Shown in pieces: positions 12,866-39,362 of a DNA stretch of 64,000 bases. A program made the position numbers and the translations under genes. Where the stretch lies: contig JACOYO010000001.1 in NCBI GenBank assembly GCA_016181845.1, positions 33,133 through 97,132 of the forward strand, given 5' to 3'. Each line of letters opens with the position of its first letter. Position 1 is the stretch's first letter. The notes under the pieces are model-generated. The model searched no databases and had not been told where the DNA came from. It saw only the letters and a program-made list of their open reading frames with translations. The stretch is from Parcubacteria group bacterium. Its GTDB lineage: Bacteria > Patescibacteriota > Minisyncoccia > Phycocordibacterales > 21-14-all-47-15.

Positions 12866-12878
12866 ACAGCGATTGATG

Positions 12879-20925: not shown

Positions 20926-21049
20926 AAGGCAATACTATACTATTTAGTACTTCTTTGGAAATAAGGGCACTTTTTGTCTTCGCCTGTATACCGACAGGCA
21001 GGCTCTGACGAAACAAGAATCACGATTCTCATTTCGCTATCAGCTCAGC

Positions 21050-21090
21050 AGAAATAAAACACCCCGCTCAAAACAAGCGGGGTGTTAAAC
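21050..21090 (-). terminator. Rho-independent terminator for the epimerase gene (21105-22175)
   Basis: CACCCCGCT-caaaacaa-GCGGGGTG hairpin, followed on the minus strand by TTTTATTTCTG. Confidence 0.6.
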
Positions 21091-21104
21091 AACAAGATAA
21101 AAAA

Positions 21105-22283: not shown

Positions 22284-22976
22284 TTATTTAAACACATTAA
22301 ACCGCACGATGTGCCACATGGCGGCCAGCCCGTCTTTCCAGTTTATTTTTTTACCTTCTTCGTAGGTGCGTCCGTAGTAAGAAATGCCGATTTCATACAC
22401 TCGCCATTTCCCTTTCGCAACATACGCCGTCAATTCCGGCTCAATACCAAATTTTTTTGACACTAATTTATTTTTAAAACTGTCTGCCACTTCGCGGCGA
22501 AATGCTTTGTAGCACGTTTCCATGTCGGAAAGATTGAGCCCTGTGAAAATATTTGAGAGCGCGGTCAAAAACTTATTCGCCATGTAATGCCAGATATAAA
22601 GCACCCGATGCGGTTCGCTTCCGATAAAACGCGAACCATATACCACGTCGGCATGCCCCGACAACATAGGCGCGAGCAATCTGTCGTATTCAGACGGGTC
22701 GTATTCCAAATCGGCGTCTTGGATAAGCAGTATATCGCCGGTCGCATTCTGAAAACCGGTTTTTATTGCCCCTCCCTTGCCTTGATTTTTCTCATGAAAA
22801 ATATAGCGTATCCCTTTTATGTTTTTCAGAATATCGCGCGTGCCGTCAGTTGAGCCGTCATCAATAACCAAAATCTCTTTTTCTACCTGCGGCAAAGATA
22901 CCGCTTGCACCTGCGAAATAAGCTCTTTGATTGTCAGCTTTTCGTTGTAGGCCGGAATGATAATAGATAGTTTCAT
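22284..22976 (-). CDS. GT2 polyprenyl-phosphate sugar synthase (DPM1/ArnC-like)
   Basis: LSIIIPAYNE ... VIDDGSTDGT ... QDADLEYDP motifs; ~230 aa. Confidence 0.8.
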   Translation of the reverse strand: MKLSIIIPAYNEKLTIKELISQVQAVSLPQVEKEILVIDDGSTDGTRDILKNIKGIRYIFHEKNQGKGGAIKTGFQNATGDILLIQDADLEYDPSEYDRLLAPMLSGHADVVYGSRFIGSEPHRVLYIWHYMANKFLTALSNIFTGLNLSDMETCYKAFRREVADSFKNKLVSKKFGIEPELTAYVAKGKWRVYEIGISYYGRTYEEGKKINWKDGLAAMWHIVRFNVFK

Positions 22977-22993
22977 AAATAAGTAATGACGAA

Positions 22994-23132
22994 TTATGAA
23001 ATAGTATTTTTAGCAGAGCCTTGCGGACCCCGACAGTTATCGTCGTGGGAGCAGAGCATCCGCCCTGGGCGGAAGCATCCGCCCTGGGCGGAATGCGTGC
23101 TGTGCGAGAAATACTATTTCGTAATTTATAGT
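22994..23132. repeat. MITE-like intergenic repeat element, divergent copy E4, containing a 19-bp tandem duplication
   Basis: GAAATAGTATTTTTAGCAGAGCCTTGCGGA aligns with the E1-E3 5' module. (GCATCCGCCCTGGGCGGAA)x2 at 23056-23093 matches the E3 hairpin. Ends with the family terminus TTTCGTAATTTATAG. Confidence 0.6.
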
Positions 23133-23141
23133 AATAAAATA

Positions 23142-24506
23142 TTAACTAAACAAATGTCCTATTCGTTCCCGAATCCTATCAAGATTTCTTAGCGCGTCAA
23201 ATAAGGTATTGCTGAAAAGAAGCAGTGTAACAAGAGCCAAGACTTTCAATTCCCTGCGACCGCGCCATAAATCAAACAACCCATAACTGGCAAATATCGC
23301 AAAAAACGGATACACAAGAAATCGATACCTCGTTTCCACAATGATACCAATAATAGCGATGGGCATCATCACAAGCATCCAGAGTAACATTTTTGCGCGT
23401 TCTTTTTCATCCGCGGAAAGCTCTTTCATACGATAGATGCCCCAAAAACCGAAAATAAAAAGAATGGCGGAGTAAACCGCAGACAATGTAAGTGTTAAGG
23501 CCTTGCTCATTCCTTCCAGATGAAACCAAAATCCGGTCGGGCGAGCGAAACTAAAATAAATGGAAATTCGCTTAAAAGTAATTTCCAAAAATTCTATCGG
23601 ACGAGAGAAAATAAAGCCAAGCGATTCTTTGAGCGCGAGCTTATTCCCTTCTATCCTTCCCTCTTTCATAAATATTTCATTACCCTCGTACGGCTCAAGT
23701 TCGCCAGAGGCACCAGGATGATTTCCGGCAAGCAAATCATACCCAAACGCAAGGTTGGTCGGGATAAAGGTGTGATACATGCGATAATTGCGGACCGTCC
23801 ACGGAGTAAAGACAAGCGTAAGTACGATAAGAAACACGCCTAGTTCTTTCCAAAATTTTTGCCAGATAAAATAGCCCGCCAGCGGAAAGATTAAAAAAAG
23901 CGCCGGAGTGCGCACCAAGACCGCAAAACCAAATACCACGGCCAACAACATCAACAACCATATTGATGCATTGGCATTTCTTTCGATATATCGAAAGAAA
24001 ATATATACGCTTAAAATAATAAAAAATATCCCGAGTGTCTCTGTCATGAGCATGCCGTTTATCGTAATTAAATCGGGAGAAAAGCCGATAAGCCCAGCGG
24101 CAACGAGCCCGATTGGCAAGCTCCAATGTTCTTTGAATATTTGTTTGCTGATAAGAAAAATAAAAAACGCAGAAAATGCCGACAAAAGCGCATTAATAAT
24201 CCACACGACTTGATAGTGATGCCCGAACAAATAATAAACGCCAGCCAAAAAAAATTCATAACCGGGTCCGACGCGCAAAATGGCCAAATCTTCATCGTAT
24301 GAAAGATCCGCCTGCTCTTTATATCCGTTCCCCTGCACAAGATTCCATGCAATGTTGTCATATGCTCGCGCGTCAACCGCAGGTGCAATGTAAAAATAAA
24401 GAGAGTACGCATAGGCAACCAGAAAAATACCGAGAACGAGAAGGCCGATTATTTTTTTCTCCATATCGTCTTGATACAAACGAGAGAACATATTCTGCAA
24501 GGACAT
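23142..24506 (-). CDS. GT-C-family membrane glycosyltransferase (PMT/ArnT-like, GT39/GT83-type)
   Basis: ~13 transmembrane helices. N-terminal loop motif DARAYDNIAWNLVQGNGY resembles the first extracytoplasmic loop of PMT/ArnT enzymes. Sits next to a DPM1-like GT2. Confidence 0.55.
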   Translation of the reverse strand: MSLQNMFSRLYQDDMEKKIIGLLVLGIFLVAYAYSLYFYIAPAVDARAYDNIAWNLVQGNGYKEQADLSYDEDLAILRVGPGYEFFLAGVYYLFGHHYQVVWIINALLSAFSAFFIFLISKQIFKEHWSLPIGLVAAGLIGFSPDLITINGMLMTETLGIFFIILSVYIFFRYIERNANASIWLLMLLAVVFGFAVLVRTPALFLIFPLAGYFIWQKFWKELGVFLIVLTLVFTPWTVRNYRMYHTFIPTNLAFGYDLLAGNHPGASGELEPYEGNEIFMKEGRIEGNKLALKESLGFIFSRPIEFLEITFKRISIYFSFARPTGFWFHLEGMSKALTLTLSAVYSAILFIFGFWGIYRMKELSADEKERAKMLLWMLVMMPIAIIGIIVETRYRFLVYPFFAIFASYGLFDLWRGRRELKVLALVTLLLFSNTLFDALRNLDRIRERIGHLFS

Positions 24507-24526
24507 ACGCCAATCTTACCGATATC

Positions 24527-24576
24527 TCAAAAAAACAGCAAGAAAAAAGCGTTCTGCTTTGTTGCAGAACGCTTTA
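24527..24576 (-). terminator. Rho-independent terminator for the epimerase/dehydratase gene (24587-25528)
   Basis: AAGCGTTCTGC-tttgtt-GCAGAACGCTT hairpin with a T-run on the minus strand. Confidence 0.5.
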
Positions 24577-24586
24577 AAAATAAACC

Positions 24587-25528
24587 TCATCCTTTATTAT
24601 GTTCTCTTGCCCAATCAATATACCGAGCAATCCCATCAAAAAGATTCATACGCGGAGAAAATCCGAAACTTTTTGCCAGAGATATGTCCGCAGGGAAACG
24701 CGACACTTCGCCCGGACGCGGCTCACCGCGCACAATATCTACTTTCAACACATGCGCAATATATGCGGCAATGTCACAAACTCTAGTTTCACAGCCACTT
24801 GCAAGGTTGATTGCCTCTCCCCGTAGCGCTTCAGTATCGTTTTCTAAAATCAAATTATATCCATCAACAATATCGCTGACATGCGAATAATCGCGCGTTG
24901 CCGTCCCGTCTCCAAAAACAGTCAGGTCTTGCCCGATGAGCGCCCGAGACACAAGAATGGGTATCAGCGCCCCAAACGTACCGCTTTTTTGGCGTTCGCC
25001 ATACACATTAAACGGTCTGACAATTGTCACGTTTACACCGTATGTTTTGAAGTATGCATGACACATCCTATCGGCCGCCGCTTTTGACGCGGCATAGGGG
25101 CTATTCGGGCGAAGTTCTGCATTCTCTCGCAAACCTTCTCTTTCAGACAATACATGCCCGTCTCCATACACTTCACAAGTAGAGGCATAAATGAGCCGAG
25201 CCTGTTCTTTCCGCACTGCCTCCAAAATATACATCGTGCCTAACACATTCGCGTGGTAAAACGAAAACGGATCTTTCCTAGACTCGTCCACGTTAACGCG
25301 CGCCGCCAGATGAAAAACCACTTCATGCCCGCGAATGCTTTTTTCTATCAACTCTTTATCCGTGACGCTTCCCCATATCAGATTTATGCTAGACAACACA
25401 CGAGCAAGATTATTTTTTGCCTGTTCCGAATAGGTATTCAGAACAGAAACGTGATGTCCTTTTGCAAGCAACAATTCCACCAAATGACTACCCTGGAACC
25501 CGCCACCGCCGGTAACTAAAATTTTCAT
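24587..25528 (-). CDS. NAD-dependent epimerase/dehydratase (SDR; UDP-GlcA decarboxylase / dTDP-glucose dehydratase-like)
   Basis: ILVTGGGGFQGSHL Rossmann motif, YAASKAAADRM (Y-x3-K); ~313 aa. Confidence 0.75.
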   Translation of the reverse strand: MKILVTGGGGFQGSHLVELLLAKGHHVSVLNTYSEQAKNNLARVLSSINLIWGSVTDKELIEKSIRGHEVVFHLAARVNVDESRKDPFSFYHANVLGTMYILEAVRKEQARLIYASTCEVYGDGHVLSEREGLRENAELRPNSPYAASKAAADRMCHAYFKTYGVNVTIVRPFNVYGERQKSGTFGALIPILVSRALIGQDLTVFGDGTATRDYSHVSDIVDGYNLILENDTEALRGEAINLASGCETRVCDIAAYIAHVLKVDIVRGEPRPGEVSRFPADISLAKSFGFSPRMNLFDGIARYIDWAREHNKG

Positions 25529-25650
25529 TTGCTTATCCTTATGAGGGTTTTGTTAATTTCTAAAAGAACCGATTCGCCACGAATAGTAACACGCAAGACG
25601 TAAGGAGGTCAATTTCTTGATTTATTCCGACGGAACAATATGATATATGT

Positions 25651-26289
25651 ATGTCATTTATCAAAACATTCGCGAAACTCCCCATTGATTTAGGTCAGGG
25701 ACAATTCCGCCACACCACAAAAGCAAAGCTCATCGCTTTTGACAGCGTCCCCAAAAATACAGCAGATCATACGGCACTTGATGTCGGATGCGGTGACGGA
25801 TATTGGTCTGAAAAATTAAAAAGTATCGGATATCGAACAACTTCGGTCGACATGAACAGACCATACCCGAATATAGACTGGGAAACCCCATACAAAGATA
25901 CTATTTTTACAGACCTCAATAAGAAACTGCCGTTTCAAGACGCTTCTTTTGATTTGGTTTGGTGTTCGGAAGTCATTGAACACCTGGAAAATCCTCAAGC
26001 GATAATAAAAGAAATCGAGCGCGTGATAAAACCCGGGGGAAAATATATTCTTACTACGCCAAACTCATTTTTTTGGCTTCATTATTTTTTGAAACTGTTC
26101 GGGTTCTCCCATAAAGATTGGCAAAATGAGGGACATAAATATTTCTTTCATATAGATGATATACAAAGTCTTTTCCCAAAGGCCAGTATTTACGGTTATT
26201 TCCCTTATCTAATATTAAAATTCAAAATTAAACACTTGATAGGCCTCCTCTCTCCAAACTTTGTTATCGTTGTGGAAAAAGCAAAATGA
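25651..26289 (+). CDS. Class I SAM-dependent methyltransferase
   Basis: LDVGCGDGYWS motif I, DLVWCSEVIEHL motif; ~210 aa. Overlaps the downstream GT-C gene start. Confidence 0.7.
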   Translation: MSFIKTFAKLPIDLGQGQFRHTTKAKLIAFDSVPKNTADHTALDVGCGDGYWSEKLKSIGYRTTSVDMNRPYPNIDWETPYKDTIFTDLNKKLPFQDASFDLVWCSEVIEHLENPQAIIKEIERVIKPGGKYILTTPNSFFWLHYFLKLFGFSHKDWQNEGHKYFFHIDDIQSLFPKASIYGYFPYLILKFKIKHLIGLLSPNFVIVVEKAK

Positions 26290-27770
26290 TTGAACGATTC
26301 AATACCATATTTGAAAAAGCAACCGGACAATACCTGCTTCAACTTACGTCAGGCAAAGCGGGCCTCTGGATTTCCGTATTGTTCATTTTTGTATTTATAA
26401 ATATTTTTTCCCTCTCGACACTTACGACAAAACCGGCGCTTTGGTATGACGAGGGAATAAATATAGAATTGGCGCGAAATTTTTCCGAATTTGGGAAACT
26501 TGATTTGATGGTTCGGCCGATGCAATTCTCCGGACAAGGCGCGCTTATCGGCTCAACTGGATACACAACCACGATTCCTCTTGCGGCATTTTTTAAACTG
26601 TTTGGCTTTGGACTGTCGCAGGCGAGAGTGTACATGCTCCTCTGGATGAACATCATGCTTTTCTGCTTATTTTATTTCGCGAGAAAAAAATGGGGCGTGA
26701 GTGTCGCTCTCGCCACATTATTTCTAGTCGCCACTTTCGCTCCTTTTTTTGGAAATGGCCGCAGTGTTATGGGAGAAATCCCCGGTTTTACGTTTTTGCT
26801 GCTTTCTCTTATTTGGTATACAGAAAAAAACAATCTATTTGGTGCGGGCTTTTTTCTTGGCTTGGCTGTGATAAGCAAGCCGTCCGTGTATGTTTTCTTT
26901 ATCCCAGCTTTTGTCATCTTGTTATTATTTGAAAAAAAAGATTTCTTTGCGCGCATTATTCGATCGGGTGCTGGCGCGGTATTGCCGCTTCTCATTTGGG
27001 CAGGCATATATCCCGACACTGCATTCTCCCCATCAACATGGAAAAGTTTGAGCGATCATGCGAGCAACCCATACGAGCAGGCGCAGGTCACTTCTTTAAT
27101 AAACATAAAAAATAATTTGGCGGCATTTTTTGAATCGCCAACCTTACTTTATTTCTTGCTGTTTGCAATCATAATCATAAGCGCCCTATACATAAAAAGA
27201 GATTTTTATGAACAGAACAAACAGATTATCATACTCACCGCCTCATACGGAATATTGGAATTTTTTTACTATTTAAAAAGCCTGGGCTATCTTCGGTATC
27301 TTATCGCCCTGCAATTCTTAATCTTCATACTCCTTGTCCCCGCTCTAGAGACGCTCGCGAGACGCTTCGCTCCTCCGCCATACGGCAGTATTGCCATACG
27401 CGCGTGCATAGCGATACTCGTATTGTTCCAAGCCGCGTATCTTTTTTCGGGGGCAAAACTTTTTTATTCGGACAGTTCACAAAAAACATTTCAATATCTG
27501 GAAAACAATTTTGAGGGGCAAATAATCGGTATCGTCAACCTGCCAACAATAGCAAGCCTTATTCCCTCAACCCAAAGAATGCAGACTATTTCTACATATG
27601 GGCTTGACAATGTGGGGGAACATCCTTTATCGCTTGTGGCGGAGGCCTTGCCGCCAGTTATTGTTTTTGAAAATAATCATGTCTTTGAACCCCAATACGC
27701 CGAGGTGTTAAAACAACATTATTTGCCGGAGAAAACAATCGGAAATATTTTGATATATCGAAAATATTAA
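26286..27770 (+). CDS. GT-C-family membrane glycosyltransferase (PMT-like)
   Basis: 12 or more transmembrane helices. First-loop motif LWYDEGINIELARNF (DE motif typical of GT39/PMT-like enzymes). Convergent with and overlapping a DPM1-like GT2. Confidence 0.5.
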   Translation: MIERFNTIFEKATGQYLLQLTSGKAGLWISVLFIFVFINIFSLSTLTTKPALWYDEGINIELARNFSEFGKLDLMVRPMQFSGQGALIGSTGYTTTIPLAAFFKLFGFGLSQARVYMLLWMNIMLFCLFYFARKKWGVSVALATLFLVATFAPFFGNGRSVMGEIPGFTFLLLSLIWYTEKNNLFGAGFFLGLAVISKPSVYVFFIPAFVILLLFEKKDFFARIIRSGAGAVLPLLIWAGIYPDTAFSPSTWKSLSDHASNPYEQAQVTSLINIKNNLAAFFESPTLLYFLLFAIIIISALYIKRDFYEQNKQIIILTASYGILEFFYYLKSLGYLRYLIALQFLIFILLVPALETLARRFAPPPYGSIAIRACIAILVLFQAAYLFSGAKLFYSDSSQKTFQYLENNFEGQIIGIVNLPTIASLIPSTQRMQTISTYGLDNVGEHPLSLVAEALPPVIVFENNHVFEPQYAEVLKQHYLPEKTIGNILIYRKY

Positions 27771-28483
27771 AAGTAAATATCAAAAAAAATCACGACGAAG
27801 TCTTTTATAATCCTCGGGATGTGCCCGAAGATACCGTAGACACTTTTTCTTTTCTCTTCACAAGTAACCGGAATTTCTTTTATTTTTAGGCCGGCACGAT
27901 TCGCGCGAATCAAAAATTCAGTATCAAGCAAATCGCGATGAGTCTTGCATTGGCTGAACACGGGGGCCGCTTTCTCTCGGTTAAAAATCTTGATGCCGTG
28001 GGTATCAGTCCCCGGATACCGAAAAAGCGCCCGCAACGCGAAATTAAATATTCGGTTGAGCATCCTTCTTGAAAGCGGCCTTAGGTCATGGGCTCCCGGC
28101 ATAGATTTAGAGCAAACGACAATATCGCTCTGCTCCTTTTCAAAAGAAACAAGCGCTTTTTTTACTGCATCCATGTCCCAAAAATCAATATTGAACACGG
28201 CAATATATGCGCCACTGCTTTTCAAAACACCTTGTTTAAGGGCGTTCCCGTATCCGGCAACCGGCAGAGATATGAGGCGTATTTGCGAATATAGAGAGGC
28301 AAGTTCTTTTGCAATCAATACCGTATTGTCAGTGCTGCCGTTTTCCACTAAAATAATTTCGTAGTCAGCACGGTACAAAAAAGTCTCCACCGCCACGATA
28401 ATCTTTTCAATTTCGGTTTTTAAAATTTCTTGCTCGTTATAAACGGGAATAACGATGGATAATTTCTTAGTGTCATGTTTCAT
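27767..28483 (-). CDS. GT2 polyprenyl-phosphate sugar synthase (DPM1-like)
   Basis: LSIVIPVYNEQE ... LVENGSTDNT ... DxD motifs; ~238 aa. Confidence 0.8.
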   Translation of the reverse strand: MKHDTKKLSIVIPVYNEQEILKTEIEKIIVAVETFLYRADYEIILVENGSTDNTVLIAKELASLYSQIRLISLPVAGYGNALKQGVLKSSGAYIAVFNIDFWDMDAVKKALVSFEKEQSDIVVCSKSMPGAHDLRPLSRRMLNRIFNFALRALFRYPGTDTHGIKIFNREKAAPVFSQCKTHRDLLDTEFLIRANRAGLKIKEIPVTCEEKRKSVYGIFGHIPRIIKDFVVIFFDIYF

Positions 28484-28511
28484 GTCTTTTTAATATTTGC
28501 TTATCATAGCG

Positions 28512-29561
28512 TCATTTTTCTCTATTGAGAAGGTCGGTCATTTTTTTTATGACAGAGACGCCGCTGTGGTTTTGTATCACCAGAGACTGAAGCTCGCGGA
28601 GTTCATATTTTGAGGCCGTCTTGATTTCTAATATTTTTTGGACAATATAATCTGCGTTGGTATTCCGCAAAAGATGTTTTTCTGGCAACATTGCAAAAAA
28701 AGCTTCGTTTGAAGTGAGCACGTTAACCCCTGACGCCATCGCTTCAAGGACCGCCTTATCAAGACTTCCGGTTTCGCTCAAATTGATAAAGAGATCGCTT
28801 TTTTGATAAAAGGAGTGGATATCGGAATACGAAACCGCGCCAACAAAAAACACGCTGTCATCTATCCCCTTCGCTTGTATCTCTTTTTTTAATCGAATGA
28901 AATAGTCATAATCCGCATTTGTAATCGGCGCCCCGACAATTTTCATTTCAAAAGAAACGCCTTCTTTTTTCAAAAGTTCTGCCGCTTCAAGCATCATGTG
29001 AATATTTTTTGCCGGCGTAATTCTACTGACAGAAAGAATATTCAATTTTTCGTGCGGCCACTTGTCCACCGGATGAAAACGCTCCGTATCAATCCCATGT
29101 CCTACTACATGCACCTTGTCGCTTTTCAAACGAAAACTTTCTTTTGAGGCGGTAAAGATAATATCGGATAATTTTTCCGCGACGCGCAATTTCATATCAA
29201 CCTGTTTGTGCGTATACCATAGCGCAATTTTTTTAGACAAAAGTTTCCAAAACACACCTCCGAGCAAAATATATATCGGATTCATGTGCACGAAGACCGT
29301 ATCGTAATTTTTTTTCTCATTCCAGATATATCTATAAAACCTTGCGATATATCGAAAGGTTTTTATTACAGTGGCACCAGCAAATTCTTCTTTGCCGAGC
29401 GATAATACGGAAACATTCTGCGGCAAATGGTATTTGCCTTTTTGCAAACAAATAACCGTAACTTTTTCAGCATGCTTGGCAAATTCTTCAATCCACCGGA
29501 CAAAAAAACCGAGGTTGTCGTCCTGTTCGTCCACTTTTTGAGTTATGATAAGCAGTCGCAT
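28512..29561 (-). CDS. Glycosyltransferase family 1 (GT4); contains the 28-bp palindrome, copy A, in frame
   Basis: C-terminal GT-B domain (GSLDKAVLEAMASGVNVL); ~349 aa. The palindrome encodes KTFRYIARFY. Confidence 0.8.
   Translation of the reverse strand: MRLLIITQKVDEQDDNLGFFVRWIEEFAKHAEKVTVICLQKGKYHLPQNVSVLSLGKEEFAGATVIKTFRYIARFYRYIWNEKKNYDTVFVHMNPIYILLGGVFWKLLSKKIALWYTHKQVDMKLRVAEKLSDIIFTASKESFRLKSDKVHVVGHGIDTERFHPVDKWPHEKLNILSVSRITPAKNIHMMLEAAELLKKEGVSFEMKIVGAPITNADYDYFIRLKKEIQAKGIDDSVFFVGAVSYSDIHSFYQKSDLFINLSETGSLDKAVLEAMASGVNVLTSNEAFFAMLPEKHLLRNTNADYIVQKILEIKTASKYELRELQSLVIQNHSGVSVIKKMTDLLNREK
29334..29366. repeat. 28-bp near-perfect palindrome AAAACCTTGCGATATATCGAAAGGTTTT (copy A), inside the GT4 CDS
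   Basis: Same palindrome at 42936-42966 and 49363-49393. Confidence 0.85.
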
Positions 29562-29567
29562 AAAAAA

Positions 29568-30677
29568 TTACAAATAAATAGCGCATGACTCCCACTGTTT
29601 TTTATATACCCGAAGATACTCTTCTTTTGAAATTTCATTTGATGCGCGTGTGAATCGCCCGCCGCTTGAAAGAGCCGCTGACAACGAGTCCGCGAGGCAG
29701 ATGGAATTGCCGACAGAGCATATAAAAACACCATCTCCTGAAACGACATCTCCCGCAATCCCCACATCAGTGGTTACTATGGGCAACCCTGCCCTATACG
29801 CCTCCACAAGCGAGAGCCCGTATCCTTCATAAAATGATGTGTGAAGATACACGTCGGCGGCGGCATAATAAGATGCAATTTCTTTTTGAGAGCCGACAAA
29901 TATAGCGCTGTCTTCCAATTTGAGATTTGAGATTTGGGACTTGAGATTTTTTCTCTCGCTTCCGTCACCAACAACAAGAAGCCCAGCTTTGGGATATGTT
30001 TTAATAATTTTTTCAAACACCTCAATCGCACGGGCAACATTTTTTTCCGGCTCAAGTCGCGAGACAACAAGAACGATTTTTTCAAACTGTGGAAACTCTG
30101 CGCGGACACGGCTGCCGTCCGCATTTTTGAATTTTTGAACATCGGTGAAAATCGGCAGTACGGCAATCGGCGCATTGGTGAATCCACTGATAGATTTTTT
30201 AATTCGCTCCGACACCACGCGGACACAATCGGCTTTGGGCAATAAAAATTTCGCAACCATCACCCGAATTTTATTTTTGATATTTTCCGCGGCAAAATAG
30301 TGGCTCATGAAATCGGTATGTACCTGCAGCTCAAGCCGCGCGCCAAGAGCGCGCGAGACGCGCCATCCGGCAAAACCGGTTTCAAACGGGTTTTGGCAAG
30401 TAACCAGGAAATCATGAGTCATGAATAATGAATCATGATTGATGCGCTTCGCGATTTTGTATGCGTCAAAAATATACAGCCAGCGGCTCAAAGAATTTGT
30501 GGAATAAATGAAAACATTGTCTGAAATCTTGATTCTTGATTCTTGATTCTTGATTCTTGCGCGGAAAATTATAATATGCAATTCTTCACACAATCTTCCA
30601 TACTCAATCATCCTCGCGCGCACCGCCGAGTCTTTTTCAAAAATTTTTGAATCAGTTGATAGCATTAGTACTCTCAT
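29568..30677 (-). CDS. Glycosyltransferase family 1 (GT4), paralogue 1 of a tandem pair, with two heptanucleotide tracts
   Basis: GT-B C-terminal domain (YGLSLVEAYRAGLPIVTT). Shares the peptide ERKNLKSQISNLKLE with the next gene. Confidence 0.8.
   Translation of the reverse strand: MRVLMLSTDSKIFEKDSAVRARMIEYGRLCEELHIIIFRARIKNQESRIKISDNVFIYSTNSLSRWLYIFDAYKIAKRINHDSLFMTHDFLVTCQNPFETGFAGWRVSRALGARLELQVHTDFMSHYFAAENIKNKIRVMVAKFLLPKADCVRVVSERIKKSISGFTNAPIAVLPIFTDVQKFKNADGSRVRAEFPQFEKIVLVVSRLEPEKNVARAIEVFEKIIKTYPKAGLLVVGDGSERKNLKSQISNLKLEDSAIFVGSQKEIASYYAAADVYLHTSFYEGYGLSLVEAYRAGLPIVTTDVGIAGDVVSGDGVFICSVGNSICLADSLSAALSSGGRFTRASNEISKEEYLRVYKKQWESCAIYL
29918..29952. repeat. Heptanucleotide repeat (GAGATTT)n, interrupted (gagattt gagattt gggactt gagattt), in GT4 paralogue 1
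   Basis: Coding strand AAATCTC units encode ..KSQISNLK.. in frame. One unit is degenerated by synonymous changes. Confidence 0.8.
30528..30560. repeat. Heptanucleotide repeat (TCTTGAT)x4.7 in GT4 paralogue 1
   Basis: Four perfect units plus a partial unit. Coding strand (AGAATCA)n encodes RIKNQESRIKIS. Confidence 0.85.
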
Positions 30678-31837
30678 AGTTGTTTAAAAAATTGAGTTAA
30701 ATTCTCAAGCATTTTTTCTTTTGAAAATCCCGCCGCTTTTTCACGCGCCGATTTTTCAAAACGCTGGCGCGCCACTGTCACATCCGCCAGTATTTCAATG
30801 ATTGCTTCTGCAAGAGCTTTTTTATCTTGATGCGTCACCAACCGCCCTGAAACGCTGTCTTCAATCAATTCAGAATTTCCGCCTACACGGGTCGTAACCA
30901 CGGGCACTCCCAAAGCCATCGCCTCAAGAATAGTGTGCGACAACCCTTCGTATCCGGTATTTAGCACGAATACATCCGCCACCATTAAATAAAGCATAGT
31001 GTCGTCGTGCGACAATTGCCCGATTAAGAATACGCTATTCTCCAATTTGAGATTTGAGATTTGAGATTTGAGATTCTTTCTTTCCGGCCCATCTCCGATA
31101 ATGTAGAGTTTTGCCTGCGGATATTTTTTTACTATTTCAGAAAACATTTCTATTAATGTTTCAAATCCTTTCCACGAAACAAGCCGCCCGATAGACACTA
31201 GTATCTCTCCTGGCCAGTCCCGCCCTTCAACGCGAGCCGGGGCGGACAAAAGAAGTCTCGCGCGAGCTTCATCGTGAGTGATATTTTGTTTCGGTAATTC
31301 AAACGCGTTATAGATAACTTCTACTTTTTCTGGAGCAACCCCCCATCCGTACACAATAATTTTTTTCAAATATTCGCTCGGCACAACTATCTTGTCCGCA
31401 TAGCGCGCCACATATTTTTGTATAGACCTACGCATTTCAATCCCAAGAGAATATTTTTTTCCCTGAAATTCATCCAACAAATCATATTCCTGATTTCTGA
31501 TTCCTGATTCCTGATTCACATATTCTTCCCACGCGCGGTCTCCTACAATTTTTACCACAAATTTTTTACCAAGTATTTTGGCGGCGCACAATGCGGGCAA
31601 GCCGACACCGAGCGGGTCTTGCGCGAAAATAATACCCGCCTCGGCTCCAGCGCGAAGCAGTTTGAAAAAATAAAAAAGATGTTTTACGCCAAAAGGCCAT
31701 TTTTTTACATCGCTCAATTTCACCACGGCAACCTGAAACCCACGGAGCGAGAGCTCGCGTTCCAAAAGAGCGGTGTATGTGGCCGGTCCGCCGATTTCGG
31801 GCGGATAGAGCGGTGTAGCAATAAGTATTTTTTGCAT
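30674..31837 (-). CDS. Glycosyltransferase family 1 (GT4), paralogue 2 of the tandem pair, with two heptanucleotide tracts
   Basis: GT-B C-terminal domain (YEGLSHTILEAMALGVPVVTT). Start taken at MQKILIATPLYPPEIGG; the ORF track extends to 31870 through a palindromic site. Confidence 0.8.
   Translation of the reverse strand: MQKILIATPLYPPEIGGPATYTALLERELSLRGFQVAVVKLSDVKKWPFGVKHLFYFFKLLRAGAEAGIIFAQDPLGVGLPALCAAKILGKKFVVKIVGDRAWEEYVNQESGIRNQEYDLLDEFQGKKYSLGIEMRRSIQKYVARYADKIVVPSEYLKKIIVYGWGVAPEKVEVIYNAFELPKQNITHDEARARLLLSAPARVEGRDWPGEILVSIGRLVSWKGFETLIEMFSEIVKKYPQAKLYIIGDGPERKNLKSQISNLKLENSVFLIGQLSHDDTMLYLMVADVFVLNTGYEGLSHTILEAMALGVPVVTTRVGGNSELIEDSVSGRLVTHQDKKALAEAIIEILADVTVARQRFEKSAREKAAGFSKEKMLENLTQFFKQL
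31049..31076. repeat. Heptanucleotide repeat (GAGATTT)x3 plus GAGATTC in GT4 paralogue 2
   Basis: Four tandem units. Coding strand (AAATCTC)n encodes NLKSQISNLK in frame. Confidence 0.85.
31489..31516. repeat. Heptanucleotide repeat (CCTGATT)x4, one imperfect, in GT4 paralogue 2
   Basis: Reads cctgatt tctgatt cctgatt cctgatt. Coding strand (GAATCAG)n encodes NQESGIRNQE. Confidence 0.8.
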
Positions 31838-31846
31838 AAGTTTATA

Positions 31847-31869
31847 TGTTGGACATCGGATGTCCAACA
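31847..31869. promoter_or_regulatory. 23-bp perfect palindrome TGTTGGACATC-G-GATGTCCAACA, ~10 nt upstream of the GT4 paralogue 2 start codon
   Basis: Perfect dyad symmetry. Positioned over the expected RBS / 5'UTR. Confidence 0.5.
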
Positions 31870-31902
31870 ATATCGTATGTTTTACTTAACCATCTTCAAC
31901 TT

Positions 31903-31937
31903 CCAAACTGTTGGACATCCGATGTCCAACAGTTTGG
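31903..31937. promoter_or_regulatory. 35-bp perfect palindrome CCAAACTGTTGGACATC-C-GATGTCCAACAGTTTGG, second copy of the same dyad core
   Basis: Shares the core TGTTGGACATC N GATGTCCAACA with the site 34 bp downstream. Abuts the E2 repeat. Confidence 0.5.
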
Positions 31938-32168
31938 AAGAAACTCGCTCTCTATCATAGTTTTTGAGAGACATTGCGGAGCCCACAGGCGAGCATAGCA
32001 AATCCTGCTCGCAAGCAGGTTCTGAAGCGAATATTTGAAGCTTCAGAAAACCTTTTGAGAATTTTTGCAAGTTTTGCGAAGTAAAAAATCCAAAAGGTGT
32101 ACTAATCCTGTAAGGATTATGCGCGTCTATCAAAAACTCATGATGAGGAAGAGTTTCGTAATTCATAG
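31938..32168. repeat. MITE-like intergenic repeat element, copy E2 (longest copy, ~230 bp)
   Basis: 5' module CTATCATAGTTTTTGAGAGACATTGCGGAGCCCACAGGCGAGCATAGCA. Hairpin AATCCTGCT-cgca-AGCAGGTT. About 100 bp of extra internal hairpins. 3' module ATGCGCGTCTATCAAAAACTCATGATGAGGAAGAGTTTCGTAATTCATAG. The 94-aa ORF 31882-32166 within it is treated as spurious. Confidence 0.7.
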
Positions 32169-33371
32169 TAAAGCAAACATTCGCTCAAAAACTTTTTCTT
32201 TCATTTGTTTAGCTATTATGTTCCAATCATATTTTTCTAGAACCATAGCCCGAGCATTCGCACTAATTTTTTCTTTCAATGCTTTATCTTCCATAAGCCG
32301 CTTCACTTGCACGGCAACGCTTTCTGGGTTATCCACCTCGCAAAAAAGCCCCGTCCCTTCGTCTTTCAAAAAGTCGGTAATGCCGCCAACTGGAGTACCA
32401 ATCACCGGCAACCCAGCCGCCATCGCTTCAATAAATGAGTTCCCCATGCCTTCTGAACGTGACGGGCGTACAAAAATATCAGCGATACTTAAATAACGAG
32501 GCACTTCGGCGCTATCCACCGATTTTATAAAAACGATTCGCTCCGACACGTGCTCTCTTTGAGCAAGCGCACGAAGGAACGCTTCATCCGGCCCTGCCCC
32601 CACAACAAGAAATTTCACATGTGAAGGCAAAAACGCGAGTGAGCGAATGACATCATCAACAGCGTTCTTGTGTACCAGGCGCGACGTGGTGATAAGCAAT
32701 ATATCATAACTAGAAAATCCGAGGGTGGCGCGCGCGTTCTGTCTCTCTTCTTTTGAAACATTTTGAGAAAATAGCGCCACATCAACGCCGTTTGGGATAA
32801 CTTCAGTGTGGCTTCTATACTTCATTGTCTTTTTTGCGAATACTTCAATCAAAAATGTGGAGATACCCTGAATGATGTCGGCTCGGTCAAAAATTTCTTG
32901 AAACCACCCACGCGCAAAACGCACGCGCCGCAAAATATGTGCTATCGGGTCACCCTCCTGCAAAGCCAGCACAAATGGCACATGAGGAAACTTCTTTTTG
33001 AAAAAAAGAGCGGCAAATCCGGCGTAATTTGCCATGATAGACCACACGGCATCATACGGATTCTCCCGATGCAGTTTTTTTGCGTATAGCGCCGCCAAAA
33101 AAGGAAATAAATATTTATTGATAGACAGAGGAAACCGAATTACCATATCTTTTACGGAACCTTTTTTTAATTCCGTAAATCCGATTCGGTGGACATTCAC
33201 GTTTCCAATTCTTTCATACCGCGGCAAATCAGAACTCAACCGGAGCGTGATCATATCAAACAGAAAATCCGGAAGCCGGTCCGTAATATTTCGCACCGCG
33301 ACTTCCGCTCCGCCCACAAACGGCTCGTACATGAGAGAAAATATTAAAATTCTTTTTTTATTTTTTTCCAT
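32163..33371 (-). CDS. Glycosyltransferase family 1 (GT4)
   Basis: GT-B C-terminal motif SRSEGMGNSFIEAMAAGLPVIGT; ~400 aa. Confidence 0.8.
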   Translation of the reverse strand: MEKNKKRILIFSLMYEPFVGGAEVAVRNITDRLPDFLFDMITLRLSSDLPRYERIGNVNVHRIGFTELKKGSVKDMVIRFPLSINKYLFPFLAALYAKKLHRENPYDAVWSIMANYAGFAALFFKKKFPHVPFVLALQEGDPIAHILRRVRFARGWFQEIFDRADIIQGISTFLIEVFAKKTMKYRSHTEVIPNGVDVALFSQNVSKEERQNARATLGFSSYDILLITTSRLVHKNAVDDVIRSLAFLPSHVKFLVVGAGPDEAFLRALAQREHVSERIVFIKSVDSAEVPRYLSIADIFVRPSRSEGMGNSFIEAMAAGLPVIGTPVGGITDFLKDEGTGLFCEVDNPESVAVQVKRLMEDKALKEKISANARAMVLEKYDWNIIAKQMKEKVFERMFALL

Positions 33372-33373
33372 TT

Positions 33374-34834
33374 TTATTCTACAATTTTGATGTCATCGGC
33401 GGTTAATTCTTCGCCATCTTTTTTCCTACTGAAAACGATGCCACCGACGGCAGTCAGCGTGATGCCGAGTACGCCCAAACCCCATAACCATGGCGAATAA
33501 CTTGACGCTTTTGGTAACTCCTTGACTGCGGGTAATGTTGCCGCAAGCGCAAGCACCGCCTCCTTTTTTGTTGTTTTGGTTTCCTGCGGTACCGGCAAAA
33601 AATCCTTATTTGAAGCCGTTAATTCTGTTTTTTGCAGCAATGACGCGCTTATCTGCGATTGAGATGAAGAGACTCTGCTCCGCGCAATAGGAGCCGCTTC
33701 TTCCACTTCAGTATACACCACGACGACTTCTCCGTTTGGATACAACAACGAAACCTCTTCTCTGTTCACAATAGGAAGTTTCGTAATTCTAAACGGAAAA
33801 ATTATCTTCGCGCCCGACAAAAGAAATGTATTTTTTGGAAAAGTAAAATATAAGTTCCCGGATTTTAGACGCCACCATGAAAGGTCAAGATCGCGAAGAG
33901 TCTTATTGTAGAGTTCAATAAAAGAATCAGCACCCGATGCGACACGAGAAATAATAATGTCAGCAGGCAACGCGTTGACTGTTAAAAAATCACTCGCGGC
34001 ATATTTTCCGGAAGACACGTCAAGCACGATACGATATTTGCCAGGATACAAAAACGCATGGAGCACTGATGCCCCTTCAATAGACGCACCGTCTCCAAAA
34101 CTCCACACAAACCGCGCGTCCTCAAGCGGTTTTCCAGCCGTGCCAATCGCCTTGCCCGAAAAAAGAGTGTCCGCGCCGACAATCACTTCTCTGTCATTCC
34201 CCGCAAAAGCGGAAATGCTATTGGTGTCAATGCTCCAGATGGAAGCACTTTCTGAAACAGCCGCTGACGATTCCTTTGGCGACTCACCTGCTGTCGTTGC
34301 ATCATTTGTAGTCTGTGCCATCGTATCAAGCGTCGTTGACGCCGCTTGCCATACGCCGTTTATCAATTGGAGAGATTTGCCGTCGCCGTTTGCGCCAAGC
34401 GCAGTGGTGTAGGAAGCCGTGTCTCCTGTTGAACCATCCGGCAAAACAAGCGCGACAGTATACACATTGTCATTCTGCTGTCCTATGTTCATAACAGTAT
34501 CAATCACGGAAATAGAAACCGTGTATTCGGCGACAAATTGCACCGCATCAGAAGCAAGAATTGCATACCCATGTGGAGAAAAAATCATTGAGCCAGTTCC
34601 TCCGTTTTTTGGCGGAGCATTCAACACATGATTGGAACCGTCATTAAATTTCCAGCCGGTTAAATCCACCGACTCTGTTCCATCATTGTATATTTTAATC
34701 CATTCGCGTCCGGCATCAGCACCTGGCAAGTCATACATGATTTCTACAATCCGCACGGAGGCATGCGTACAAAACGGCAAAAAAATTAAGACAAAAAGAA
34801 ATACAATTTTATACATTGTATAGAATTGTAACAA
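33374..34834 (-). CDS. Membrane-anchored surface protein with two lamin-tail-domain (LTD)-like modules and Ser/Thr-rich linkers
   Basis: N-terminal signal/TM segment. VRIVEIMYDLPGADAGREWIKIYNDGTESVDLTGWKFNDGSNH is an LTD signature. Second LTD-like segment IIISRVASGADSFIELYNKT..LSWWRL. C-terminal TM helix plus charged tail. First gene of the GT4 operon. Confidence 0.6.
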   Translation of the reverse strand: MLQFYTMYKIVFLFVLIFLPFCTHASVRIVEIMYDLPGADAGREWIKIYNDGTESVDLTGWKFNDGSNHVLNAPPKNGGTGSMIFSPHGYAILASDAVQFVAEYTVSISVIDTVMNIGQQNDNVYTVALVLPDGSTGDTASYTTALGANGDGKSLQLINGVWQAASTTLDTMAQTTNDATTAGESPKESSAAVSESASIWSIDTNSISAFAGNDREVIVGADTLFSGKAIGTAGKPLEDARFVWSFGDGASIEGASVLHAFLYPGKYRIVLDVSSGKYAASDFLTVNALPADIIISRVASGADSFIELYNKTLRDLDLSWWRLKSGNLYFTFPKNTFLLSGAKIIFPFRITKLPIVNREEVSLLYPNGEVVVVYTEVEEAAPIARSRVSSSQSQISASLLQKTELTASNKDFLPVPQETKTTKKEAVLALAATLPAVKELPKASSYSPWLWGLGVLGITLTAVGGIVFSRKKDGEELTADDIKIVE

Positions 34835-39182: not shown

Positions 39183-39234
39183 TATCTCTATAGTATCGTA
39201 ATAGACCGATAAGAGCGAGCGGTTAATGTGTTTG

Positions 39235-39362
39235 AATTACGAAACTCGCCCTGAATCATAGTTTTTGAGAGACATTGCGGAGCCCACAGGCAAGCATAGC
39301 ATCCGCCCTGGGCGGAATGCGTGTCTTTCAAAAACCAACGATGAAGCAGAGAAATACAACCG
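39235..39362. repeat. MITE-like intergenic repeat element, copy E3
   Basis: GAATTACGAAACTCGCCCTGAATCATAGTTTTTGAGAGACATTGCGGAGCCCACAGG 5' module. GC-rich hairpin CATCCGCCC-tgg-GCGGAATG. 3' module ATGCGTGTCTTTCAAAAAC..ATGAAGCAGAG. The 94-aa ORF 39188-39472 is treated as spurious. Confidence 0.7.

Follow-up and report, generated by a model that had tools for sequence, protein, structure and literature searches.

Paired GT2 and GT-C glycosyltransferases in a conserved Paceibacteria gene cluster, a candidate locus for cell-surface glycan assembly

In actinobacteria, a soluble DPM1-like GT2, Ppm1, which has no membrane anchor of its own, feeds GT-C transferases, and the GT4 enzymes are cytoplasmic. 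The wall-polysaccharide cluster of Streptococcus mutans contains two GT-A/GT-C pairs, SccN/SccM and SccP/SccQ (PMC11754754). Streptococcal Pgf-type glycosylation is extracytoplasmic, and GT-Cs of the YfhO type have protein acceptors in some species and teichoic acids in others (PMC12041528); membership of a GT-C family therefore cannot settle the acceptor. Seven-nucleotide SSRs are known in Haemophilus influenzae (PMC2651432), and phase variation of pglE, which belongs to the meningococcal pilin glycosylation module, is under the control of a heptanucleotide repeat (PMC7157529).

In this paper we describe a group of glycosyltransferase genes in a Parcubacteria/Paceibacteria (CPR) genome. The window, that is, the whole stretch of DNA analysed, is 64,000 nucleotides long. 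An earlier note on it had proposed a protein O-glycosylation system made up of two GT2/GT-C pairs and a surface protein with LTD domains. We give about even chances to the region being the core of a ~30 kb cluster for cell-surface glycan assembly that uses lipid-linked sugar donors and is conserved across Paceibacteria.

Gene content and conservation of the cluster

The ORFs named in the earlier note were all found in place, and every assignment was backed by Pfam. The features of the cluster are as follows.

8072..9895, minus strand: 607-aa polytopic membrane protein whose large family is uncharacterised; its first loop has a motif like that of GT-Cs
12113..12910, minus strand: additional ArnC/PgfS-like GT2 (ArnC 7.5e-17, PgfS 2e-14)
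12879..14327, minus strand: RmlA-like sugar-1-phosphate nucleotidyltransferase fused to an ArnC/DPM-like GT2
15385..17235, minus strand: GT4 fused to a GtrA/DPMS-type 4-TM domain (Glycos_transf_1 1.6e-24, GtrA_DPMS_TM 9e-15)
22284..22976, minus strand: GT2_A, soluble 230-aa DPM1/ArnC/AglJ-like GT2 (PF00535 1e-37)
23142..24506, minus strand: GT-C A, polytopic membrane glycosyltransferase with no soluble domain (PMT_2 3.6e-13, PMT 2.7e-9); the true start is probably at 24464, inside this ORF
24546..24575, minus strand: strong terminator-like hairpin between the epimerase gene and GT-C A (12-bp stem, then a T run)
24587..25528, minus strand: SDR nucleotide-sugar epimerase/dehydratase (PF01370 2e-64)
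25651..26289, plus strand: class I SAM methyltransferase, its stop overlapping the start of GT-C B (Methyltransf_11 7e-21)
26286..27770, plus strand: GT-C B, polytopic GT-C ending in an alpha/beta outer domain of ~100 aa (PMT_2 2.8e-9)
27767..28483, minus strand: GT2_B, soluble 238-aa GT2, partner of GT-C B (PF00535 5e-23)
28512..33371, minus strand: four nucleotide-sugar-dependent, cytoplasmic GT4 genes, 28512-29561, 29568-30677, 30674-31870 and 32163-33371 (Glycos_transf_1 5e-24 to 4e-42)
31832..32161, no strand assigned: 330-nt repeat-element (MITE-like) insertion between two GT4 genes
33374..34816, minus strand: LTD-PKD-LTD surface protein (LTD 5.6e-24, PKD_4 5.7e-9)
35802..37823, minus strand: soluble VirD4/TraD/HerA-like P-loop ATPase (weak TrwB/DUF87/TraG matches; TraD and CedD-like in NCBIfam)

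More than two candidate modules are present, since the window holds two more ArnC/PgfS-like GT2 genes, one of them the RmlA fusion, which is possibly a further lipid-linked sugar synthase, and a third polytopic protein. The family of this protein (8072..9895) comprises 846 representative clusters and has the first-loop consensus D-x-E-x-x-Y-L-A-R-I-x-E-I-x-D-G-H; the protein itself has no match in Pfam or the PDB, PMT_2 is weakly matched by one of 43 family members, and it may be a third GT-C. NCBIfam matches of the SDR protein (dTDP-glucose dehydratase, LegB, GalE) all fall below cutoff.

The arrangement of VirD4-like ATPase, LTD protein, GT4 array and GT2/GT-C modules recurs across Paceibacteria, and the entire cluster is found at ~50% identity in a complete Niyogibacteria genome, where a third PMT_2 gene is present. 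The modules are placed among GT4 genes, the GT4-GtrA fusion (which recurs in 21 of 41 GT-C A loci) and sugar-nucleotide genes.

The five further glycosyltransferases that had been counted in the LTD operon do form an array, but its composition is four GT4 genes and GT2_B, the last gene of the transcription unit. The 330-nt element within the array is missing from a close relative (L154); it has an internal inverted repeat, and related segments of 60-80 nt lie at 417-554 and 39233-39301. A 94-aa ORF at 31882-32166 lies within this insertion and is probably spurious.

Heptanucleotide tracts are indeed present, and in the window they are confined to GT4 genes (all on the minus strand).

16479-16511: 7-nt tract in the GT4-GtrA fusion
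29918..29949: CTCAAAT-type, imperfect, in GT4 29568-30677, encoding NLKSQISNLKL
30410..30438: CATGATT-type, imperfect, in the same gene
30525..30560: AAGAATC, perfect, ~5 copies, in the same gene, within a 206-nt segment non-homologous to the close relative
31044..31076: CTCAAAT x 4.7, perfect, in GT4 30674-31870
31486..31517: GAATCAG type, in the same gene; at this site the unit of the relative differs and its sequence is 21 nt longer

In 2 Mb of sequence from the lineage, 26 of 29 such tracts lie within GT4 ORFs, and all 26 are in frame. They are short and of near-constant length (4.0-5.6 copies), and their unit sequences are diverse. This near confinement of in-frame tracts to GT4 genes throughout the lineage is the most unusual feature of the cluster. 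The tracts make the variability of a surface layer, as formerly suggested, plausible, but neither a frameshifted (OFF) allele nor length switching was observed.

The GT2/GT-C modules

Both GT2 proteins resemble polyprenyl-phosphate-sugar synthases (DPMS, ArnC, PgfS), as had been claimed, and no TM helices are predicted in either. The closest solved relatives of GT2_A are Pyrococcus furiosus DPMS (7.6e-17) and ArnC (1.5e-16), its alignment with DPMS, ArnC and PgfS spans ~205 catalytic-core residues, and its top NCBIfam matches (AglJ, PpgS, PgfS, ArnC) are under cutoff; it is a putative polyprenyl-phosphate sugar synthase. GT2_B matches ArnC (1e-9) and DPMS (3e-9) over ~140 catalytic-core residues, and its best match among solved structures is the N-terminal region of chondroitin synthase. 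When aligned with GT2_A it has N-I-D in place of the canonical D-x-D.

The PMT/ArnT-like first-loop motifs of the two GT-Cs hold up in their homologues: in the first outer loop of GT-C A, D45 is invariant and D50 nearly so (45 homologues), and in that of GT-C B, D55 is invariant and E56 nearly so (47 homologues). Structure models of both show a confident GT-C fold, with PimE and Emb among the weaker structural matches. Profiles of the two families, however, find no match at E<=10 among solved GT-Cs, PMT and ArnT included. Affinity to PMT, ArnT or AftD-like families had been left to be checked; the GT-C class is borne out, but on these profiles and models GT-C A and GT-C B are CPR-specific families of PMT_2 type, equidistant from protein-, lipid- and glycan-modifying GT-Cs.

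As judged from sequence, GT2_B and GT-C B are a real pair, because their orthologues exist as single fused polypeptides, with GT2_B at the N-terminus (P0127 and P0138, sequences read); P0129 and P0139 have the same Pfam architecture. A GT2 lies directly adjacent to 8 of 12 GT-C B-like genes. The methyltransferase is likewise coupled, in that P0164 joins a related enzyme (core identity 36%) and GT-C B in one protein, and in L157 the neighbours of a GT2-methyltransferase fusion are a stand-alone GtrA and a PMT_2 gene. Every GT-C A locus of at least 12 kb (41/41) contains a GT2_A-like match, and a GT2_A orthologue (>=40% identity) lies within 5 kb of GT-C A in 31 of 45 loci. The proposed enzyme logic, in which a polyprenyl-phosphate-sugar synthase-like GT2 supplies a GT-C on the outer face, is well supported by the GT2 resemblance, the fusions and the pairs in dozens of Paceibacteria loci. 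It counts against the reading as a glycan cluster that GT2_A directly adjoins GT-C A in just 9 of 45 loci and that GT2_B has no canonical D-x-D.

The LTD protein and the acceptor

Besides its folded domains, the LTD protein has a signal peptide, two linkers that are disordered, a TM anchor at the C-terminus and an acidic cytoplasmic tail that is conserved. It is membrane-anchored and heads the GT4 operon, as previously described, but the gene most likely starts at ATG 34816 and not at 34834; the resulting product of 480 aa agrees with a database protein (P0222). Its stop overlaps the start of the first GT4 gene, and it is co-transcribed with the GT4 array. Linker 1 is 38% S+T, the C-terminal linker 24% and the folded domains 14%; the family medians are 29%, 19% and 15%. 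The alignment of the family comprises 42 sequences. The Ser/Thr richness formerly ascribed to these segments is moderate. The linkers are ordinary S/T/P/E-rich spacers with no poly-Ser/Thr tracks. Co-transcription with the GT4 genes and an S/T/P-rich linker fit a glycoprotein equally well. The gene found most constantly beside LTD is that of the VirD4-like ATPase, directly upstream on the same strand and 54-75% identical (44 of 49 loci).

Protein O-glycosylation, in which the GT-Cs would move polyprenyl-phosphate sugars to Ser/Thr of disordered surface-protein segments with the LTD protein as main acceptor, would resemble actinobacterial Ppm1/Pmt or streptococcal PgfS/PgfM1 and GtrB/PgtC2; we consider it rather unlikely. 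It is favoured by the place of the LTD gene at the head of the GT4/GT2_B unit, with its stop overlapping the first GT4 start, by a GT4 gene within 3 kb downstream of LTD in 32 of 44 loci, and by a linker 1 that is S/T/P-rich family-wide. Among extracytoplasmic segments in the window, the one richest in S/T belongs to LTD. GT-C A scores above the Pfam threshold for PMT, and the combination of a GT-A, an epimerase and two GT-Cs next to the gene of a surface protein recalls the pgf operon (PMC12041528). Matches to PMT and PMT_2 are, however, no indicator of a protein acceptor, and YfhO GT-Cs modify proteins or teichoic acids depending on species (PMC12041528). The GT-C profiles match no solved PMT, just 3 of 33 loci have a GT-C gene in the ~10 kb downstream of LTD, the ATPase is the tightest partner, and the C-terminal linker is barely above the domains in S/T. 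None of the analyses made here supports the step to protein O-glycosylation with the LTD protein as acceptor.

A lipoglycan of the mycobacterial PIM/LM/LAM type appears improbable. GT4s would glycosylate a membrane lipid in the cytoplasm, and after flipping several GT-Cs would elongate and branch the lipid-anchored glycan with polyprenyl-phosphate sugars made by Ppm1-like GT2s. The several GT4s, the soluble Ppm1-like GT2s and the multiple GT-Cs (including the possible third at 8072-9895 and the third PMT_2 in Niyogibacteria) fit this, as does the lack of a recognised phosphoglycosyl transferase, exporter or ligase, expected for a glycan that stays lipid-anchored. NCBIfam matches of the GT4s include MGlcDAG synthase and GlcN-PG synthase, but these and all others are generic and below family cutoffs; in structure, PimE and Emb rank with the weaker matches of the GT-Cs, and the window has no inositol or lipid-anchor-specific gene. 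It is very improbable that the GT2s are ordinary nucleotide-sugar-to-glycan transferases and the GT-Cs act independently, for example by transferring the completed product of the GT4s en bloc from a polyprenyl-diphosphate carrier like an oligosaccharyl transferase. The chondroitin synthase match and missing D-x-D of GT2_B favour this, but the fusions to GT-C B point to direct coupling of donor and transferase, and the catalytic cores of both GT2s match DPMS, ArnC and PgfS. In STT3/AglB/PglB the WWDYG motif is carried on a C-terminal domain, which GT-C A, with no soluble domain, cannot hold.

Side-chain decoration of a glycan is favoured over protein O-glycosylation. In our view the likeliest acceptor is an extracytoplasmic glycan chain, a wall- or lipid-anchored polymer that would be decorated with side chains or elongated, on the model of the wall-polysaccharide clusters of streptococci with their two GT2/GT-C pairs; a protein acceptor is possible. 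In such a glycan cluster, GT4 and nucleotide-sugar-modifying enzymes would build a glycan on a membrane carrier in the cytoplasm. In parallel, GT2_A, GT2_B and probably the two GT2s upstream would charge polyprenyl phosphate with single sugars on the inner face, and the coupled methyltransferase would probably methylate one of these lipid-linked sugars. The lipid-linked sugars would be flipped, possibly via a GtrA-type domain, and GT-C A and GT-C B would each use its own on the outer face. We infer which lipid carrier and sugars are used, that one sugar is methylated, and what the acceptor is. In the window and the Niyogibacteria locus we recognised no phosphoglycosyl transferase for initiation, no Wzx/ABC exporter, no LCP ligase and no polymerase, so that a wall-polymer pathway is incomplete as seen here; such genes could lie elsewhere in the genome.

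Comparison with known systems

The locus differs from ArnC/ArnT lipid A modification in that its GT2s lack the C-terminal TM helices of ArnC and the window lacks the ArnA/B/D/E/F set; CPR bacteria are generally considered to be without LPS. It shares a soluble DPM1-like GT2 and cytoplasmic GT4s with the actinobacterial systems of Ppm1 and Pmt (protein O-mannosylation) or PimE/Mpt (LM/LAM), and GT-C A is like Pmt in its Pfam PMT score, but the GT-Cs have no sequence-level relation to solved PMTs and match PimE weakly in structure, and a partner domain of Lnt type is absent. Like the Neisseria pgl and Haemophilus SSR loci, it has repeat units that are not a multiple of three inside glycan glycosyltransferase ORFs; unlike those phase-variable loci, its tracts are short, near-constant, diverse in unit and in frame, with no length switching observed.

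The streptococcal Pgf/PgtC2 system likewise has a GT-A, an epimerase and two GT-Cs beside genes for S/T-rich surface proteins (PMC12041528), and PgfS is among the NCBIfam matches of both GT2_A and GT2_B. PgfM1, PgfM2 and PgtC2 are, however, YfhO-family GT-Cs, and no YfhO match in Pfam occurs here; streptococcal acceptors carry poly-Ser/Thr tracks, whereas the candidate LTD linkers are 19-38% S+T.

From the streptococcal wall-polysaccharide machinery the window differs in its GT2s without membrane helices, its CPR-specific PMT_2-type GT-Cs, the methyltransferase coupled to one pair, and the lack of a recognised ABC exporter, rhamnan genes or LCP ligase. In both S. mutans and the analogous S. 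pyogenes pathway, as is proposed here, two independent pairs of a GT-A (Und-P-sugar synthase) and a GT-C are embedded among cytoplasmic glycosyltransferases and nucleotide-sugar genes, a flippase is not assigned, and sugar addition takes place on the outer face (PMC11754754).

Gene content and synteny of the glycan cluster

The genome from which the window comes belongs to the Parcubacteria/Paceibacteria (CPR), and nearly all source-named homologues of its two polytopic glycosyltransferases (GT-C A and GT-C B) and of its LTD-PKD-LTD surface protein (the LTD protein) derive from Patescibacteria MAGs. Scans of the window for tRNA genes and Rfam families returned neither. The earlier note had proposed a protein O-glycosylation system made of two GT2/GT-C pairs with the LTD protein, at the head of a GT4 operon, as acceptor. 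All the genes it named are present where it had placed them, and each assignment is backed by Pfam. The genes of this region are the following:

22284-22976 (-), GT2 gene, referred to as GT2_A
23142-24506 (-), PMT_2-type polytopic protein, GT-C A
24587-25528, SDR epimerase
25651-26289, SAM methyltransferase, the stop codon of which overlaps the start of GT-C B
26286-27770 (+), PMT_2-type polytopic protein, GT-C B
27767-28483 (-), GT2 gene, referred to as GT2_B
28512-33371 (-), array of four GT4 genes
33374-34816 (-), LTD-PKD-LTD protein with a signal peptide and a C-terminal anchor

They are only one part of a larger glycan cluster, which extends back to approximately position 2844 and includes genes for a GDP-mannose dehydratase, a C-methyltransferase, a DegT aminotransferase, AsnB, an RmlA-GT2 fusion, a GT4-GtrA fusion and further GT4 and GT2 proteins. 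In the RmlA-GT2 fusion (12879-14327), an RmlA-like glucose-1-phosphate nucleotidyltransferase is joined to an ArnC/DPM-like GT2, an arrangement that would couple nucleotide-sugar synthesis directly to a lipid-linked sugar step.

The same cluster is found at approximately 50% identity in the complete Niyogibacteria genome CP066691, where the gene order is LTD-PKD-LTD; GT4 genes; a 570-aa protein without a Pfam match; GT4, GT4, GT2 and epimerase; GT-C B, methyltransferase, GT-C A and GT2; GT4, AsnB, methyltransferase and GT4-GtrA; and a third PMT_2 gene. In L154, a locus from a close relative (approximately 89% nucleotide identity), the order from GT-C B to a VirD4/TraD/HerA-like P-loop ATPase (35802-37823 (-) in the window) is identical to that of the window.

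Repeated elements are also present. A small, intergenic MITE-like repeat with an internal inverted repeat occurs at 417-554, 31832-32161 and 39233-39301 of the window and at 158-299 of L001, a related locus; the copy at 31832-32161 separates two GT4 genes and is missing from L154. A 94-aa ORF at 31882-32166 was rejected as a gene, as it sits within this insertion. A 19-nt unit stands in two tandem copies (23055-23093) within the 165 nt that separate GT-C A from GT2_A, and each copy holds a GC-rich hairpin (coding strand, TCCGCCC-AGG-GCGGA).

Probable donor synthases and GT-C transferases

GT2_A (230 aa) and GT2_B (238 aa) are 27% identical, and neither has a TM helix. The nearest solved relatives of GT2_A are the dolichol-phosphate mannose synthase (DPMS) of P. 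furiosus (7.6e-17) and ArnC (1.5e-16), and its top NCBIfam matches, to AglJ, PpgS, PgfS and ArnC, all fall under the family cutoff. GT2_B is more divergent (ArnC 1e-9, DPMS 3e-9). The C-terminal membrane helices of Gtr-type GT2 proteins (GtrB/CsbB) are absent from both. Because the two proteins are short, have no membrane helix and match DPMS, ArnC and PgfS in their catalytic domains, they are soluble catalytic domains of the DPM1/Ppm1-like kind, not GtrB/ArnC-type enzymes that bring their own anchor. Where GT2_A has D-A-D, GT2_B has N-I-D; this replacement of the usual D-x-D metal-binding motif in the GT2_B family is kept in both fused orthologues that were read (P0127 and P0138).

GT-C A matches both PMT (PF02366; 37.4 bits against a cutoff of 22.7) and PMT_2 (PF13231; 50.5 bits), and GT-C B matches PMT_2 alone (37.8 bits); such matches are a weak criterion for PMT/GT39 membership, because ArnT-like and many uncharacterised GT-Cs fall under the same models. 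The first-loop motif described in the earlier note is present, acidic and conserved. Directly after the first membrane helix, D45 is invariant and D50 nearly invariant among 45 aligned homologues of GT-C A, as are D55 and E56, respectively, among 47 of GT-C B; the motif is common to GT-Cs with other acceptors. Neither the luminal MIR domain nor the PMT_4TMC C-terminal module of eukaryotic PMTs was matched by Pfam in the two proteins.

It had been asked whether the GT-Cs fall with the PMT, ArnT or arabinan clade, and they could be placed in none of these. Profiles built from the 45 GT-C A and the 47 GT-C B homologues matched no PDB chain at E<=10 in a library that included Pmt1, Pmt2 and Pmt4. 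The AlphaFold models are confident (pLDDT 91 for GT-C A and 92.5 for GT-C B), that of GT-C A being an all-helical membrane protein with no soluble domain. Structural comparison, for which Foldseek was also run, gave scores that are nearly flat over the acceptor classes, both for GT-C A (AglB 22.6, ArnT 22.6, ALG12 22.3, Pmt4 21.2) and for GT-C B (Pmt4 23.3, ALG12 21.8, ArnT 20.7, AftA 20.1). Between the two families there is only a distant relationship (hhalign 93.6%, 137 columns). GT-C A and GT-C B are CPR-specific families, and the database name 'GT39' is a Pfam-derived label.

Another polytopic protein of the window (8072-9895, 607 aa) belongs to a large family of 846 representative clusters that recurs in the related glycan clusters L017, L031, L034, L038 and L113. 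Its family motif in the first loop, D-x-E-x-x-Y-L-A-R-I-x-E-I-x-D-G-H, has a GT-C-like look, and this motif and one weak PMT_2 match, the only such signs, suggest that it may be a GT-C. As a candidate for the missing polymer or OTase part it was tested and rejected; the family has no Pfam or PDB relative, and hhalign gave no significant match to either GT-C profile.

The proposed pairing of GT2_B with GT-C B is real. Four GT-C B homologues of 714-735 aa carry PF00535 and PMT_2 in a single protein, and in the two fusions that were read a clearly GT2_B-like N-terminal portion leads directly into the first GT-C helix; in addition, 8 of 12 GT-C B-like genes have a GT2 no more than 400 nt away. The other proposed pair, GT2_A with GT-C A, is consistently linked but looser. 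A GT2_A-like match occurs in all 41 GT-C A loci of at least 12 kb, and in 31 of 45 loci an orthologue (at least 40% identity) is no more than 5 kb away from GT-C A, but the two genes are directly adjacent in only 9 of the 45, and the statement that they are mostly adjacent was rejected.

The methyltransferase belongs to the GT2/GT-C module as well. In the homologue P0164 a methyltransferase related to that of the window is fused to GT-C B, and the module is found in compact form at 17685-21140 of the related locus L157, where the genes for a GtrA protein on its own, a PMT_2 protein and a fusion of GT2 with a methyltransferase stand side by side, 6-8 kb downstream of the LTD gene of that locus. 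We infer that the methylation of one lipid-linked sugar would take place on the cytoplasmic side. The only GtrA of the window is the C-terminal domain of a GT4 protein (15385-17235). This fusion of a GT4 to a GtrA/DPMS-type four-helix membrane domain is kept in 21 of 41 related loci and could be a lipid-carrier-dependent GT4, or the source of the flippase function that is missing from the GT2/GT-C modules.

In multi-component transmembrane glycosylation, the polyprenyl-phosphate sugar produced by a GT-A is moved by a flippase and then transferred outside by a GT-C (PMC11754754, PMC5836110). The gene logic of the cluster fits this scheme, and the coupling of GT2 to GT-C that marks Gtr-type systems is seen in the GT2_B-like/GT-C B-like fusions and in the gene neighbourhoods. 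The logic of a lipid-linked donor used by a GT-C, as first supposed, holds on the GT2 matches to DPMS and ArnC, the fusions and the synteny. That GT2 and GT-C enzymes work through polyprenyl phosphate is known and will not surprise a specialist; new in this cluster are the CPR-specific GT-C families, their soluble GT2 partners, the natural fusions and the methyltransferase coupling.

Heptanucleotide tracts in GT4 genes

TRF identified six period-7 tracts in the window, all of them within GT4 genes:

16479-16511, heptanucleotide tract
29918-29949, heptanucleotide tract
30410-30438, heptanucleotide tract
30525-30560, heptanucleotide tract
31044-31076, heptanucleotide tract
31486-31517, heptanucleotide tract

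Others were found in L154, L017, L057, L090 and further loci. A scan of 2.05 Mb, comprising the window and 156 related loci, for tracts of at least four copies with at most one mismatch gave 29 tracts of period 7 and 0-2 for periods 5, 6, 8, 9, 10 and 11. GT4-like DNA makes up 15.7% of the sequence scanned, and 26 of the 29 tracts lie in ORFs homologous to the window GT4 genes. Copy number is narrow (4.0-5.6), the units vary from locus to locus, and several tracts share a structural place, for example ...GDGSERKNLKSQISNLKLEDS..., the helix after the G-x-G strand. Such tracts characterise the GT4 genes of Paceibacteria glycan clusters throughout the lineage. One tract, at L100 9796-9828, is intergenic and lies just upstream of an LTD gene.

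Like SSR contingency loci, the period-7 tracts are non-triplet tandem repeats inside ORFs and occur over chance. Selection at the protein level cannot account for perfect DNA periodicity that is read in three frames, which implies a process at the level of DNA, such as slippage. Comparison of the window with L154 shows one tract at the same position with a different unit and a length difference of 21 nt (three units, frame kept; L154 is the longer), and a further tract that is found in L154 and not in the window. In the GT4 gene 29568-30677, a stretch of 206 nt (30392-30597) that carries two 7-nt tracts is non-homologous to L154 4120-4295 between flanks that are approximately 89% identical, and is a cassette-like replacement. 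Each of the 26 tracts in GT4 ORFs sits in a reading frame that is uninterrupted and has the size of a GT4 gene, with no OFF allele among them. The 90% clusters of tract-bearing GT4 proteins were uninformative on length variants, being singletons or differing only in start sites.

The tracts are the part of the cluster most worth following up. They may be contingency loci at which GT4 genes would undergo phase variation. Phase variation of a glycan glycosyltransferase by a heptanucleotide repeat is known from meningococcal pglE (PMC7157529), and the SSRs of H. influenzae are a further precedent (PMC2651432). Should the tracts indeed mediate switching, they would constitute the first known indication of contingency loci in CPR, none having been found in the literature searched, and would be relevant to the way in which these episymbionts vary the surface that they present to hosts and phages.

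The LTD protein, the acceptor and known systems

The LTD family (approximately 480 aa) is well conserved in Paceibacteria and has a constant architecture, with a conserved acidic cytoplasmic tail after the anchor. Neighbours were counted in a set of 80 metagenome loci, each with a member of the family at its centre, wherever flanking sequence sufficed. The ATPase, 54-75% identical to that of the window, is encoded directly upstream on the same strand in 44 of 49 loci, and the 3 kb downstream include a GT4 gene in 32 of 44. A GT-C-like gene was found within approximately 10 kb downstream in only 3 of 33 loci with HMMs of three families, a more sensitive search than tblastn, which found no such linkage. 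In the window the stop of the LTD gene overlaps the start of the first GT4, which makes co-expression with the GT4 array likely. The ATPase is soluble and has a long disordered C-terminal region; the acidic tail of the LTD protein (..ADEIEIIE) could be a docking site, and the two proteins may form an apparatus of their own.

Serine and threonine make up 38% of linker 1 of the LTD protein (family median 29%), 24% of its C-terminal linker (19%) and 14% of its domains (15%). The Ser/Thr richness described earlier is moderate. The LTD protein has the most S/T-rich exported segment in the window, but its linkers are far from the tracks of poly-Ser/Thr seen in streptococcal proteins that are proven acceptors (PMC12041528). 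The LTD protein is a reasonable candidate acceptor and no more; it may equally belong with the ATPase.

CPR/Patescibacteria account for a large share of bacterial diversity and live attached to other cells, and to our knowledge almost nothing of their surface chemistry has been learned by experiment. Our literature search returned no relevant paper on CPR/Parcubacteria glycosylation or on LTD proteins. The cluster, conserved across Paceibacteria, supplies concrete parts that can be tested: two GT-C families specific to CPR, together with their donor synthases, a methyltransferase tied to a lipid-linked sugar step, and a conserved LTD protein flanked by the VirD4-like ATPase and glycan genes. 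The natural fusion proteins show which of the enzymes work together.

Known systems of the GT-A/flippase/GT-C kind have wall polysaccharides, teichoic acids, lipid A, lipoglycans or proteins as their targets. For this cluster we give a glycan chain about an even chance of being the acceptor. A protein acceptor, for which the LTD protein is the candidate, we consider rather unlikely; protein O-glycosylation, as the earlier note read the genes, is not favoured, with the GT-Cs outside the PMT clade and so seldom downstream of the LTD gene. Transfer to a lipid-anchored glycan of the LM/LAM type we regard as distinctly unlikely. All three readings face the same caveat, in that the window yielded no recognisable initiating transferase, exporter or ligase: among the ORFs scanned there was no Pfam or NCBIfam match to a phosphoglycosyl transferase, a Wzx/ABC exporter, an LCP ligase, Wzy_C/PglL or STT3. 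A more elaborate picture, to which we give little credence, is that the LTD-PKD-LTD protein would be both anchor and acceptor of a Paceibacteria glycan coat, made by the CPR-specific GT-Cs from (partly methylated) polyprenyl-phosphate sugars and switched on and off in its composition by slippage at the GT4 heptanucleotide tracts. If this is true, these ultra-small symbiotic bacteria would carry a glycoprotein surface layer that is phase-variable.

The closest protein-directed analogue is the pgf operon, in which a GT-A, an epimerase and two GT-Cs stand beside adhesin genes (PMC12041528). The Pgf and PgtC2 GT-Cs, however, are YfhO-domain proteins (PMC12041528), whereas neither GT-C A nor GT-C B has a Pfam match to YfhO. 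Since the YfhO GT-Cs of Pgf act on proteins and YfhO relatives in other species have teichoic acid targets (PMC12041528), membership of a GT-C family does not predict the acceptor. The closest layout is that of S. mutans, where two GT-A/GT-C pairs, SccN/SccM and SccP/SccQ, lie within a cluster of cytoplasmic glycosyltransferase genes and the target is a wall polysaccharide (PMC11754754).
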